DNA from: Escherichia coli
Lineage (GTDB): Bacteria; Pseudomonadota; Gammaproteobacteria; Enterobacterales; Enterobacteriaceae
Assembly (NCBI RefSeq): GCF_003991155.1
Contig: NZ_CP031295.1
Length of the DNA: 64,000 nt
Strand: one strand, 5' to 3'
Shown here one piece after another: positions 30,001-39,000 of this stretch; position 1 is the first letter of the stretch, and every line of letters starts with the position of its first letter. Made by a program: the position numbers.

Positions 30001-33000
30001 ATTTCATTGGTTGTAATGGAATCAACCGTACCCTCACTTTCAATAGCTTTTGGTTTATAGTCTGATTTCTTTGGTATGCTAGTAATGGTCGGATTCTTAA
30101 TGAGGACCATATTTCCAGTACTGTCTACATAGACACTCACTATATAAGCAGAGTGGACGGTCTTTGTATTTTCCCCCTCTGTAATGAGTTGGTCTACACT
30201 GGGCACTGTTGCAAAGTTAGCGATGAGGCAGCCTTTTGTCTTATTCAAAGGCCTTACATTTCAAAAACTCTGCTTACCAGGCGCATTTCGCCCAGGGGAT
30301 CACCATAATAAAATGCTGAGGCCTGGCCTTTGCGTAGTGCACGCATCACCTCAATACCTTTGATGGTGGCGTAAGCCGTCTTCATGGATTTAAATCCCAG
30401 CGTGGCGCCGATTATCCGTTTCAGTTTGCCATGATCGCATTCAATCACGTTGTTCCGGTACTTAATCTGTCGGTGTTCAACGTCAGACGGGCACCGGCCT
30501 TCGCGTTTGAGCAGAGCAAGCGCGCGACCATAGGCGGGCGCTTTATCCGTGTTGATGAATCGCGGGATCTGCCACTTCTTCACGTTGTTGAGGATTTTAC
30601 CCAGAAACCGGTATGCAGCTTTGCTGTTACGACGGGAGGAGAGATAAAAATCGACAGTGCGGCCCCGGCTGTCGACGGCCCGGTACAGATACGCCCAGCG
30701 GCCATTGACCTTCACGTAGGTTTCATCCATGTGCCACGGGCAAAGATCGGAAGGGTTACGCCAGTACCAGCGCAGCCGTTTTTCCATTTCAGGCGCATAA
30801 CGCTGAACCCAGCGGTAAATCGTGGAGTGATCGACATTCACTCCGCGTTCAGCCAGCATCTCCTGCAGCTCACGGTAACTGATGCCGTATTTGCAGTACC
30901 AGCGTACGGCCCACAGAATGATGTCACGCTGAAAATGCCGGCCTTTGAATGGGTTCATGTGCAGCTCCATCAGCAAAAGGGGATGATAAGTTTATCACCA
31001 CCGACTATTTGCAACAGTGCCATTTTACTTACGTCAGTACATGGCAGGGCTTCGTTTATGTGGCGTTCATCATTGATGTGTTTGCCGGATATATCGTGGG
31101 ATGGCGGGTCTCATCGTCCATGGAAACGACATTGGTGCTGGATGCACTTGAGCAGGCGTTGTGGGCCCGCCGTCCGTCTGGCACCATCCATCACAGCGAT
31201 AAAGGCTCTCAGTATGTATCGCTGGCCTACACGCAGCGGCTTAAGGAAGCCGGATTACTGGCATCAACAGGGAGCACAGGCGACTCGTATGACAACGCGA
31301 TGGCTGAGAGCATCAATGGTCTTTACAAAGCGGAGGTAATACACCGTAAGAGCTGGAAAAACCGTGCAGAAGTGGAACTGGCCACACTCACGTGGGTGGA
31401 CTGGTATAACAATCGACGATTGCTGGGAAGGCTGGGCCATACTCCTCCGGCAGAAGCAGAAAAAGCTCATTATGCTTCCATCGGAAACAATGATCTGGCA
31501 GCCTGAGTTCACAGATAAAACACTCTCCAGGAAAATCGGGGCGGTTCACTGATTTACTGAGACAGAATCTTTGCCCCTGAGTCTAAGGATGATCGTATAA
31601 CGTGATTTTCGGTCTACAAGTGTGGCTATATGAGAGTTTTTTGTACCTGAGACTAAATCGCCCTCCCAATGCCCCAGAGAGCGTCTGTTATCGATATTTC
31701 GGGAACGTTCGTGAATTGGTGTTCCGTTCACTATGTTAATCGTACCTCTTTCGCCTTTGCGGGTATGACGCCTGCCATGGCGAAGGCTATGCGACCGTCG
31801 CAGATGCTGTATATTCAGGTGGTGTAGCGCTTCACGGCTACGAAAGTACAGCGTTTTATAAATTGTCTCAGGTGATATTCGCAGCGTTTTTTGACGTGGT
31901 TTTGTTCGCCTTAACCATCCTGATATTTGCTCTGGAGACCATTTCATCTCCAGCTTTTCCAGAACAAGCTTTCGCAATGGTAAATTTTGATCCAGTAAGC
32001 ACGGTTTTGGCCTTTTCGCCATTCTGTTGGCTCGGTTATTAGCATCAACAGCTTTGTAATAGCGTCTGCCCCGATTACGCTGAACTTCACGTGAGATCGT
32101 CGAAGGACTGCGATTCAGCGCAGTAGCTATCGCACGAATGCTCATTTTGGCTGACAAACCAGCTCGTATCTCCTCGCGCTCAGACAGTGTCAGGTGAGCT
32201 ACAGCCCGCTTACGCTCATGGGGTTTTATGCCGCCAGTATCCCTTAACATAGTGAAGATCGTTCCGGGTTTTGAACCCAGGATATTCGCTATTTCACTGA
32301 AGCCTGTTCCGTTCTTCCATAGTTCAAAAACAGAGGCTTTTTCCTCTGCTGTAAATGTTCGTCTCATTCAAAAAACCTCCGCAACCCCATGTTTTCACAT
32401 AACTGTTGCGTTGACCAATTGAATCTACAGCGGCGTACTTCGCAAAGCTGTCCGACTGAGGTACGCCTTTATCCGTGACAACTCCTGTTGCTGGCCTGTT
32501 CGCCTGCTCTGTCGGGTGCTGGATGTTCATCCCAGTGGTTTTTACGCCTGGCTTCAGCAGCCGCATTCACAACGCCATCAGGCAGACCTGAGACTGACAG
32601 GACAGATTAAACAGTTCTGGCTGGAATCGGGATGCGTCTATGGTTATCGCAAAATCCATCTGGATCTGCGTGACAGCGGGCAACAGTGCGGAGTAAACAG
32701 AGTCTGGAGACTGATGAAACGTGTCGGAATAAAGGCTCAGGTCGGATACCGAAGCCCGCGGGCACGTAAAGGCGAGGCCAGTATCGTGTCACCCAACAGG
32801 CTCCAGCGACAGTTCAATCCGGATGCTCCTGATGAGCGTTGGGTAACGGACATAACCTACATCAGGACCCACGAAGGCTGGCTGTATCTTGCCGTTGTTG
32901 TTGATCTGTTCTCACGCAAAATTATCGGCTGGTCCATGCAATCCCGGATGACAAAGGACATTGTCCTGAACGCACTGCTGATGGCTGTATGGCGGCGTAA

Positions 33001-36000: not shown

Positions 36001-39000
36001 AATTCCCTGTTATTATATAACTTCTTAATCACTTCATTGGGCACTGTTGCAAAGTTAGCGATGAGGCAGCCTTTTGTCTTATTCAAAGGCCTTACATTTC
36101 AAAAACTCTGCTTACCAGGCGCATTTCGCCCAGGGGATCACCATAATAAAATGCTGAGGCCTGGCCTTTGCGTAGTGCACGCATCACCTCAATACCTTTG
36201 ATGGTGGCGTAAGCCGTCTTCATGGATTTAAATCCCAGCGTGGCGCCGATTATCCGTTTCAGTTTGCCATGATCGCATTCAATCACGTTGTTCCGGTACT
36301 TAATCTGTCGGTGTTCAACGTCAGACGGGCACCGGCCTTCGCGTTTGAGCAGAGCAAGCGCGCGACCATAGGCGGGCGCTTTATCCGTGTTGATGAATCG
36401 CGGGATCTGCCACTTCTTCACGTTGTTGAGGATTTTACCCAGAAACCGGTATGCAGCTTTGCTGTTACGACGGGAGGAGAGATAAAAATCGACAGTGCGG
36501 CCCCGGCTGTCGACGGCCCGGTACAGATACGCCCAGCGGCCATTGACCTTCACGTAGGTTTCATCCATGTGCCACGGGCAAAGATCGGAAGTGTTACGCC
36601 AGTACCAGCGCAGCCGTTTTTCCATTTCAGGCGCATAACGCTGAACCCAGCGGTAAATCGTGGAGTGATCGACATTCACTCCGCGTTCAGCCAGCATCTC
36701 CTGCAGCTCACGGTAACTGATGCCGTATTTGCAGTACCAGCGTACGGCCCACAGAATGATGTCACGCTGAAAATACCGGCCTTTGAATGGGTTCATGTGC
36801 AGCTCCATCAGTAAAAGGGGATGATAAGTTTATCACCACCGACTATTTGCAACAGTGCCCTGTGGAGCACGATCAGGATGGCAGAGGAGAAGCTGAGTTC
36901 TTATTACCGGAAATCGATTATTCCCCGGTATCTGGTAACTGGCGCTCCCTTCCTTCTGGCCTGATGTATAGGCTCAGCGAACTCTCTGTTCTCAGCTACG
37001 AAGCTGTCGTGTGTGTAGATAATGTGTTTGTTGAAGATACTCCTTATGGTGGAGCGGGTGAATATAGTTTGCATAAAAACGCAGCTATGTTGGGAGTAAA
37101 AGCACTGCGGTTATCACGAGAACTGAGAATGTTATGTGGCCTCCCTCTGCACGGCCTTTCCGATACACTATCGCCAACGAGGTTGGTATTGTTGAAAGCC
37201 AGAGGTAAAACACTCCAAAAGGAGTACGAAATGGTAAAGAAGTCTAAAAAGACCGAGCAAGAGATTGAGGATTTCATAAAGGGGACATCATGAGTGGCCC
37301 ACAATTGCTTTCCCTGCCAGGTTCTTTTTTAACGCCTCCGGCAACATTACCTGTTGCCATTGATTACCCGGCTGCGCTGGCACTACGTCAGATGGCACTT
37401 GTGCAGGACGAATTACCAAAATATCTGTTGGCGCCGGAGATCAGCGCCCTGCTCCACTATGTACCGGATCTGCACCGCAAAATGTTGCTGGCCACCCTGT
37501 GGAACACGGGCGCACGTATAAACGAAGCGCTGGCGCTGACGCGGGGAGATTTTTCTCTGGCGCCGCCATATCCGTTCGTACAGCTGGCCACGCTCAAACA
37601 ACGGACTGAAAAAGCGACCAGAACGGCAGGCCGTGTCCCTGCTGGCAGTCAGGTGCATCGCCTGGTTCCCCTGTCCGATACACAATACGTCAGCCAACTG
37701 CAGATGATGGTGGCCACGCTGAAAATCCCACTGGAGCGCAGAAACAAACGAACCGGAAGAATGGAGAAGGCGCGCATCTGGGGAATCACCGACCGCACAG
37801 TTCGCACCTGGCTGAATGAAGCTGTAGAGGCCGCTGCGGCCGACGGCGTGACGTTCTCTGTTCCGGTTACCCCACATACTTTCCGCCATTCCTACGCGAT
37901 GCATATGCTGTATGCTGGTATTCCGCTGAAGGTGCTGCAGAGCCTGATGGGGCACAAGTCGATTAGTTCGACAGAGGTGTACACGAAGGTGTTTGCGCTG
38001 GATGTGGCTGCACGGCACCGGGTGCAGTTTTCGATGCCTGAGTCCGATGCTGTCACAATGCTGAAAACAGACACGCATAAGTCACAAATCATAATTATGA
38101 ATTGTGATTTATTCTATAAAAGAAGAGACCACTGCAATATGTGATCTCTTGTATGCAAGGGTGCTTAAACAGTGTGAATTCACAAGTGTGATTTCATAAG
38201 TAATAACTTCTTGATTATTACGTTAGTGTTTTTAAGTATTGCTCAAGGGCTACTCTGACGATGGCACTTACATTTTTTGGATCTTTACCATTGCGTTTAT
38301 TCCTCAATGCCAGATCTTCTATTGTGACAAGCATGCTTTCACCAAGAGAGATTGTCGTCCGACATTGTTTTTCTGGTTCGGGTTTTTCCGGCGCGCCGTA
38401 TGGTTTATCCGCAAGGCGCTGAGCCAGAGCCTCTGCTTGTTCTACCGTAACTGCAGCTCTGTTTAATGCTTGCTGGCTGGGTTTCTTCACCATGGGCCAA
38501 ATACCTCATTCATTAAATGTTCAATTTCTGCTCTGGCTGCTGTATTGTTCGTTTCTACTACACCGGTGCCGTTGCTCATGCAATCGCGATAGACTTTTCT
38601 GAAACAAATAACTGAATCCAGGACTTGAATTGTTGGGAATTCTTCAAGATATTCAAGGAATTCTTTTCTCTCATTTCCCCTCAAAACCGGATTGGTTGTT
38701 GCCATACTTTGTAAACAATAAACCTTAAGTTCCGGGTTAAGGTTACGCATTGCGTCTATCTGTTGTTCTAGTTCTGTAAGAGTATCCAGATCTGGTTGAG
38801 AACACTGTAGTGGCGCAATTATTTGATGTGCGACAACTCCACTCGTTATGAATTCCTTTGAGTTTCTTCCTGCGACATCCACTATTACATCATCGAACTT
38901 TTCATTCAGAGCCTGTAGTGTTTGTGTCAGGTTATCAAATTTCTCAACAAGGGTTATTGCTGGTAACAGTCCTGCAGCTTCTCGTTCCGCATGATGTTTT

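Follow-up and report, generated by a model that had tools for sequence, protein, structure and literature searches.

In the 64,000-nucleotide stretch of Escherichia coli contig NZ_CP031295.1 analyzed here (referred to as the window), a 6658-bp unit at positions 30202 to 36859 holds an orphan copy of rclA, a gene of the chromosomal rclRABC locus, as an earlier note on this DNA had described; the plasmid is a multiresistance one of IncF type. The region is quite probably a fixed and eroded relic of an old capture of chromosomal rclA by the insertion sequence (IS) IS1, which later came to lie between two copies of IS26 and in which rclA would probably be expressed constitutively and independently of its regulator, RclR. 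The simplest reading of the sequences would be a single capture as an IS1-rclA-IS1 block, erosion of that block from both sides, and a late arrival of IS26.

Origin of the rclA block

The features at the core of the unit are the following:

33797 to 34564, minus strand: IS1, complete, 768 bp, of the IS1SD type by annotation in relatives
34565 to 36039, plus strand: native E. coli rcl DNA, 1475 bp (53 bp upstream, rclA, 96 bp downstream)
34618 to 35943, plus strand: rclA, intact, encoding a 441-amino-acid protein of the FAD/NAD(P)H disulfide-reductase family

The earlier note had reported an intact rclA with 53 bp of native upstream sequence and without rclR, rclB, and rclC and had suggested a comparison with the chromosomal rcl locus of E. 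coli. That comparison and a blastn search of the window bear out the description. Exactly 53 bp of native DNA (34565-34617) precede the rclA ATG, as against 226 bp in the chromosomal rclR-rclA intergenic region, and 96 bp follow the gene, stopping 12 bp short of the rclB start; both flanks are identical to the chromosomal sequence. No rclR, rclB, or rclC DNA was found in the window by blastn. A member of the RclR regulon would be expected to keep an intact rclR-rclA control region with rclR in cis; here 53 of the 226 bp are kept and IS1 lies beyond. The window copy differs from the chromosomal locus further in being plasmid borne and in occurring across genera, some of which have no rcl locus.

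The RclA protein matches the NCBIfam equivalog NF040477 over its full length (870.3 bits, where the cut-off is 740; residues 1-441 align to profile positions 1-441) and contains the Pyr_redox_2, Pyr_redox, and Pyr_redox_dim domains. The alignment with the solved structure PDB 6KGY likewise spans the whole protein, and both C43 and C48 are present in the motif GGTC43INIGC48, the CXXXXC active site shared with the chromosomal system. Compared with the K-12 protein, it carries the changes Q130K, N153H, and M389I; activity is expected for this variant, since the same protein is the chromosomal allele of many E. coli. A look-up of the contexts of the exact RclA protein, taken longest contigs first, returned chromosomal contexts only. 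A hairpin with a 12-bp stem (35954-35981) closely follows the stop codon of rclA and is kept in all plasmid forms; it scores as a terminator on the minus strand only.

The evidence for capture by IS1 comes from the junction upstream of rclA. IS1 has the ends GGTAATGACTCC... and ...GGCAGCGTCACC, and its left inverted repeat abuts the rclA upstream DNA. In every plasmid context read, the left repeat is followed by TTTTGCGTC, 53 bp before rclA, and the junction is identical base for base. These contexts include the IncF mosaics (the window and the relatives labeled L001, L004, L006, L013-L016, and L021) as well as L005, L010, L011, L012, L023, and L024. Because the junction is common to contexts that have no IS26 next to rclA, IS1 rather than IS26 appears to have been the capturing element. 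The junction was found in 212 PLSDB plasmids, counting those that cover >=80% of the junction query; among 5426 complete E. coli genomes, it is present in 136, with 143 records in all. The forms differ in how much remains on either side:

pCD63-2-1 and p2017.15.02CC (L023, L024): left, complete IS1; right, +55 bp of native DNA into rclB, then an inverted complete IS1
fec-operon plasmids (pKEC-39c, L010): left, IS1 cut to 68 bp by IS903B; right, second IS1 at +26
IncFIA/FIB plasmids (L011, L012): left, IS1 cut to 10 bp and abutting the end of an IS3-family element; right, IS1 at +8
IncFIA/FIC lineage of the window: left, complete IS1; right, IS26 at position 0

The right ends thus form a nested series, with IS1 at +55, +26, and +8 bp and IS26 at 0. 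A second IS1 to the right of rclA is present in L005, L010-L012, L023, and L024, and the window, with its left IS1 only, does not have the IS1 at both ends that an IS1 composite transposon has. IS1 composite transposons include Tn9-type structures. The relatives L023 and L024 resemble this class in having complete IS1 copies on both sides of rclA and differ from it in that the two copies are inverted, with their left repeats inward, and no 9-bp duplication surrounds them; in the window, the right IS1 is gone altogether. The window IS1 itself is likewise not flanked by a 9-bp target duplication (TGGCCATCG versus TTTTGCGTC).

From these forms, a sequence of events may be proposed. One IS1 would have come to lie 53 bp before rclA and another, in inverted orientation, within the first part of rclB, giving an IS1-rclA-IS1 block that reached plasmids; the composite transposition of this block is a step that we infer. 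In the IncFIA/FIC lineage, IS26 would then have replaced the right IS1, with the native DNA trimmed to 96 bp after rclA, and a second IS26 would later have landed in the IS3-family element on the left. Resistance modules would since have been exchanged at that left IS26, with the rclA side remaining on an unchanged backbone. As to the donor of the usual plasmid allele, no chromosome among the 5426 genomes exceeds about 99.1% identity. Two candidates for a chromosomal progenitor with IS1 at the native locus, ST540 and PEC199, were rejected, as both are integrated plasmid segments with parM and umuDC.

Predicted promoter of plasmid-borne rclA

A promoter scan places a candidate promoter across the IS1-rclA junction:

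34551 to 34579, plus strand: predicted hybrid sigma-70 promoter, with -35 TTGGCA within the terminal repeat of IS1 and -10 TATAGT in native DNA, separated by a 17-bp spacer

This site has 10 of 12 sigma-70 matches and lies 39 bp before the rclA ATG. TTGGCA is 8 bp from the tip of IS1 and TATAGT 9 bp from the junction, on the native side; a Shine-Dalgarno sequence, AGGAAA, is found at 34607-34612, and transcription would start at about 34586. In the same scan, no sigma-70-like site was found on the rclA strand of the native chromosomal rcl locus, in keeping with the dependence of this promoter on an activator of the AraC type. The literature searched gave no usable map of the rclA transcription start or of the RclR binding site.

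The outward -35 hexamer of IS1 forms hybrid promoters when placed at the right distance from a -10 (Prentki et al. 1986, as cited in PMC8764528), and the latter paper describes IS1 upstream of afaA in ST131. As in those cases, an outward -35 in the window faces the gene and stands 17 bp from a flanking -10, inside the 16-18 bp that characterize such promoters. The window promoter differs from them in being predicted from sequence and in that its gene travelled with IS1 to plasmids instead of being left in place. A 10/12 site is present in all three variants of the left end, including the one in which IS1 is cut to 10 bp, where the adjoining IS3-family end makes TTCACA-17-TATAGT.

On the chromosome, rclA expression rises >100- to 256-fold on exposure to hypochlorous acid (HOCl) or hypothiocyanite (HOSCN) via RclR (PMC7527725; PMC9335216). 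Insertion of IS1 would cut off the rclA promoter at about -22, with loss of all sequence farther upstream, including any AraC-type RclR site, and would put in its place the outward IS1 -35 hexamer at an ideal 17 bp from the native -10, so that the host would hold a standing pool of RclA even where it has no rclR. With the 226-bp intergenic region cut to 53 bp, RclR control of plasmid rclA has presumably been lost. Expression of rclA from the plasmid is plausible because of the IS1/native hybrid promoter, a feature that the earlier note had not mentioned, and we consider RclR-independent, constitutive transcription moderately likely on the basis of this predicted site.

Two changes in this region, an extra C (34572) and a G>A change in the 5' leader (34597), occur in L001 and most IncF relatives and in none of the chromosomes read; they may be plasmid-specific changes that tune expression.

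The IS26 pair, the rclA allele, and alternative readings

The remaining features of the unit, whose 5018-bp interior was parsed by BLAST and domain searches, are the following:

30202 to 31021, minus strand: IS26, left copy, 820 bp, with 14-bp inverted repeats GGCACTGTTGCAAA at both ends
31022 to 31548, plus strand: 3' fragment of an IS3-family orfB (integrase core) with rve, rve_3, and rve_2 domains; the element is cut by the left IS26
31549 to 32430, minus strand: truncated IS30, 882 of about 1221 bp, encoding only the N-terminal 273 amino acids of the transposase
32430 to 33346, plus strand: second IS3-family fragment, orfB complete, orfA missing, interrupted by IS30
33430 to 33711, plus strand: open reading frame (ORF) of 93 amino acids, elsewhere the hypothetical protein WP_000639434.1, within a 450-bp stretch (33347-33796)
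36040 to 36859, minus strand: IS26, right copy, 820 bp, cutting the rcl DNA 12 bp before rclB

The mosaic listed in the earlier note, with an IS3-family fragment, IS30, a small ORF, IS1, and rclA, stands except for one label. The fragment at 32430-33346, there called IS150-like, shares 49% amino acid identity with IS3 and 38% with IS150 and is a transpos_IS3 equivalog (339 bits, profile positions 110-369 of 369); it is therefore an IS3-family sequence nearer to IS3. The IS3-family element at 31022-31548 is full length in L004 and L006, where the alignments begin exactly at 31022 and the element continues to the left. IS30 was identified by 99% BLAST matches to annotated IS30, an HTH_38 domain with the start of rve, and equivalog positions 1-176 of 267; the element is intact in L003. 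The 93-amino-acid ORF has no Pfam or NCBIfam match and in all IncF relatives examined lies directly outside the left IS1, and the 33347-33796 stretch around it may be a remnant of the first landing site of the IS1-rclA block. An Rfam search found no RNA family within 30000-37500.

The two complete IS26 copies reported earlier, in direct orientation and without a target duplication, were likewise found at 820 bp each. In both, tnp26 lies on the minus strand. The left transposase is an IS6-family transposase equivalog (275 bits, NCBIfam), and the left copy has the same sequence as the IS26 at 5621-6440, which is in the opposite orientation. The right copy has 3 nucleotide changes relative to the left one, which lead to H8Y and P69T in Tnp26; this variant is WP_065304467.1, which shows nucleotide 48 G>A upstream of tnp26 as well as these two substitutions, and it is kept beside rclA across the plasmid family, the other two IS26 copies of the window being standard. 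The 8-bp flanks are CTACACTG and CTGTGGAG on the outside and ATTTTACT and CTTCATTG on the inside. They show no 8-bp target duplication and no match in direct or inverted form, also when the IS26 at 5621-6440 is included, and with no 8-bp pairing among the IS26 copies of the window, inversions and deletions could not be reconstructed from these flanks. In total, four elements in the window have the IS26 terminal repeat GGCACTGTTGCAAA. The fourth, at 14796-15614, is 819 bp long with the same 14-bp terminal repeats and a clearly different interior; its global alignment to IS26 scores 412, against 820 for identity, and on this sequence evidence it is another IS6-family element and not a fourth IS26. 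We take it to resemble IS1006 of Acinetobacter, which would suit the neighboring ISAba1/sul2/floR module.

Comparison with relatives indicates which side of the unit has been mobile. The right IS26, in its variant with three single-nucleotide polymorphisms (SNPs), abuts the same backbone in all eight relatives examined, among them L001, L004, L006, and L013-L016, with a hypothetical ORF, an integrase gene, a ParA/MipZ-like gene, parM, and umuDC. The left IS26 occupies the same position in five relatives. Its outer neighbor varies: relatives have sul2/ISAba1 (in two orientations), mef(B), or sul3 there, and the window has a truncated Tn916-type tcpC with tet(M). Varied DNA on the left and a constant backbone on the right suggest that the left IS26 was the exchange point and that the rclA segment stayed where it was. 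In plasmid pAB12-1-tetX4, the left neighbor corresponds to window positions 5617-14795 in inverted order (floR, ISVsa3, sul2, ISAba1), and the two records therefore differ by an IS26-associated inversion or insertion of about 24 kb.

Further observations concern the neighbors of the unit. The segment at 27437-30248, in which a tet(M)-type ribosomal-protection gene (644 amino acids, EF-G-like domains) lies beside the truncated Tn916-type TcpC gene cut by the left IS26, is a remnant of a Gram-positive conjugative transposon on an enterobacterial IncF plasmid, and the tet(M)-IS26-rclA arrangement was found in no PLSDB plasmid. On the other side, an ORF of 168 amino acids (36787-37293) starts inside the IS26 end and reads into the backbone; it is WP_001505085.1 in relatives, has no family match, and is probably a backbone gene truncated by IS26 or an artefactual fusion ORF.

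IS26-bounded segments form translocatable units. With two complete, direct IS26 copies around an intact passenger gene and no target duplications, the unit has the form of an IS26 pseudo-compound transposon, and the earlier note took the pair to have mobilized rclA, a gene that would aid hypochlorite or disinfectant tolerance. We consider this account improbable, and for the capture step it is largely refuted: the capture junction is formed by IS1, is older than IS26, and occurs in contexts without an adjacent IS26. The block always lies beside the same backbone; the window unit has no 8-bp duplications, and among the relatives examined the unit was not found at different sites. It also departs from IS26 pseudo-compound transposons in that its passenger is not a resistance gene, only the DNA outside the left copy varies, and the right copy is the three-SNP variant. 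Release of a translocatable unit by the pair would be possible in principle; the relatives compared lend it no support. Two points further disfavor tolerance: the window lacks rclB and rclC, whose products share in HOCl resistance (PMC7527725), and the strongest documented activity of RclA is against HOSCN. Another alternative, which we regard as unlikely, treats rclA as a silent hitchhiker, that is, neutral debris between IS elements near partition and maintenance genes, with a fortuitous promoter-like site. The surroundings are indeed pure IS debris, and the alleles of the IncF copies are nearly identical, as expected for recent clonal spread. Set against this, the ORF is intact in all of about 20 copies read, bar one from an old assembly, and none of the erosion events seen (three independent truncations on the left, four end points on the right) reaches into the -35/-10 elements, the ORF, or the 35954-35981 hairpin. 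In the form with only 10 bp of IS1, a -35 with 5/6 matches has newly arisen at the same spacing, for which we estimated a chance of about 5%. Capture by IS1 with a promoter kept through erosion therefore remains our preferred reading, and several points weigh against it, some of them in favor of a silent gene. No 9-bp duplication surrounds the IS1-rclA-IS1 form in L023 and L024 (outer flanks TGGCCATCG versus CGGGAGCTC); the usual IncF allele reads TTGGCA-18-TATAGT through the extra C, a less ideal spacer; shuffled controls of a 1.8-kb scan gave 3.8 promoter-like sites by chance; and the role of TATAGT as the native -10 is itself an inference. Erosion into the gene does occur, as 38 of 269 rclA-matching plasmids (14%) hold truncated copies with <80% of the block, and the persistence of rclA on plasmids could reflect hitchhiking beside essential backbone genes instead of selection.

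The rclA allele of this record poses a separate question. Alignment of the unit with that of pAB12-1-tetX4 gives 19 differences (18 SNPs and an indel of 1 bp). Every one of them falls in the rclA block, from 34572 to 36015, and the remaining 5183 bp of the unit match perfectly; the adjoining 12 kb of backbone contain 3 further differences. Were the 19 differences spread uniformly over the unit, such clustering would have a probability of 3.7e-13. Toward the two IS junctions, the bases that mark the window allele are the missing C at 34572, G at 34597, T at 35991, C at 36006, T at 36013, and A at 36015. Across all 1475 bp, at least 40 E. coli chromosomes match the window block with 100% identity, and its best match among >200 plasmids is 99.1%. 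The 17-bp promoter spacer of the window, as opposed to 18 bp in its nearest relatives, is a consequence of this allele difference. The plasmid family is regularly found in E. coli strains whose chromosome has the matching allele (examples are strain 980-2 and several Hong Kong wastewater isolates). Contamination by a K-12 recipient was rejected as the source, K-12 differing from the window at 19 sites. Shorter chromosomal-type tracts were found in pCP66-6 (L006; window-equivalent 34968-35182) and pCUVET18-789.2 (L021; window-equivalent 35166-35182), both of which otherwise have the standard plasmid allele; they suggest recurrent plasmid-chromosome exchange or recurrent polishing errors.

The earlier note had named a chimeric misassembly of chromosomal reads as what would undo its account. 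The structure is real, given the recurrence of the junction in the 212 plasmids and 136 genomes noted above, and the allele may nevertheless derive from chromosomal reads. An assembly or gap-filling chimera, in which the host chromosomal rclA filled the stretch between the IS1 and IS26 repeats, is a possibility that we place slightly short of an even chance. It would account for the confinement of all 19 differences to the 1475-bp block, for the full identity with at least 40 chromosomes where the best plasmid reaches 99.1%, and for the finding that carriers of this chromosomal allele are regular hosts of the plasmid family. The swapped tract ends no more than 8 bp from IS1 and 24 bp from IS26, which fits contig substitution, and tract edges at repeat boundaries are awkward for RecA-dependent conversion. 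A chimera sits less well with the IS1, IS30, and IS3 fragments, which also have chromosomal copies and show no chromosomal-type changes, or with strain 980-2, which has the same chromosomal allele and whose plasmid copy has the usual form near the IS1 junction, the part that was checked. The shorter tracts in pCP66-6 and pCUVET18-789.2 also suggest real recombination. They belong, with the unchanged neighboring IS sequences and the same allele data, to the case for a real allele that arose by whole-length replacement with the host chromosomal allele, via gene conversion or ends-out replacement, an explanation that we entertain tentatively. Such a replacement would need exchange points within 7-32 bp (left) and 24 bp (right) of the edge of homology, lengths at or below the usual minimum for RecA recombination, and the full swap was seen in no second plasmid. 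We regard the two explanations as about equal.

Distribution and function

The unit is a common plasmid segment, already annotated and not unique to the window. At 99.7% identity, the whole 6658 bp occur in at least 77 PLSDB plasmids, and the rclA block was found on 231 plasmids from Escherichia, Klebsiella, Salmonella, Enterobacter, Shigella, Citrobacter, Leclercia, and Hafnia. The IS1-rclA junction, too, is present on Klebsiella, Enterobacter, Leclercia, and Hafnia plasmids. PGAP annotation of the plasmid copies already names the gene rclA; literature searches combining rclA or ykgC with IS26, plasmid, or Klebsiella found no paper on plasmid-borne rclA. Metagenome scans for the junction in both spacer variants gave 0 matches and were uninformative. 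The iron-citrate operon fecIRABCDE is the neighbor of the IS1-rclA block in a second plasmid family, with members from Enterobacter and E. coli (L005, L010).

The kinds of structure involved, namely, an IS1 hybrid promoter, an IS-captured chromosomal gene, and an IS26-bounded mosaic, are known. What appears to be new, judged from the sequences compared, is the single capture by IS1, the predicted promoter that would bypass RclR, the conservation of that promoter through erosion, and the block with a chromosomal allele in the window.

The best-documented activity of RclA is the reduction of HOSCN, and RclA supplied from a multicopy plasmid fully protects E. coli against this oxidant (PMC9335216). 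RclA also reduces Cu(II), and its protection against HOCl is tied to intracellular copper (PMC7527725). The rclABCR locus is limited to few enteric genera, without Klebsiella or Enterobacter (PMC7527725), so that rclA would need a regulator-free promoter in those hosts. The earlier note had suggested relevance to disinfectant tolerance, a possible reading and the weaker one; a standing defense against peroxidase-derived oxidants in animal hosts would be more in line with the enzymology. Milk is the source of several host isolates of the second plasmid family, the one with the fec operon, including Klebsiella, and milk lactoperoxidase makes HOSCN, a substrate of RclA; this is an association only.

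It is doubtful, in our judgment, that rclA is selected cargo, that is, a constitutive HOSCN and reactive-chlorine reductase rewired by IS1 and carried on multidrug resistance and fec/lac-type plasmids in eight enterobacterial genera, some without an rcl locus, while exchanging alleles with chromosomal rclA. If it is, the gene would provide a standing defense against peroxidase-derived oxidants in the gut, milk, or airway; many rclA plasmids come from pigs, poultry, milk, and wastewater. The allele of this record would be either a rare documented case of gene conversion between plasmid and chromosome or a warning about chimeric assemblies of plasmids that have a chromosomal paralogue. Were the hybrid promoter inactive, the region would be ordinary IS debris. 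If it is active, more than 200 sequenced conjugative plasmids would carry an always-on enzyme against HOSCN, an oxidant of innate immunity, and a host-adaptation trait would be travelling together with antibiotic resistance genes. The region would then be a natural example of an insertion sequence turning an activator-dependent stress gene into a portable, regulator-free module.

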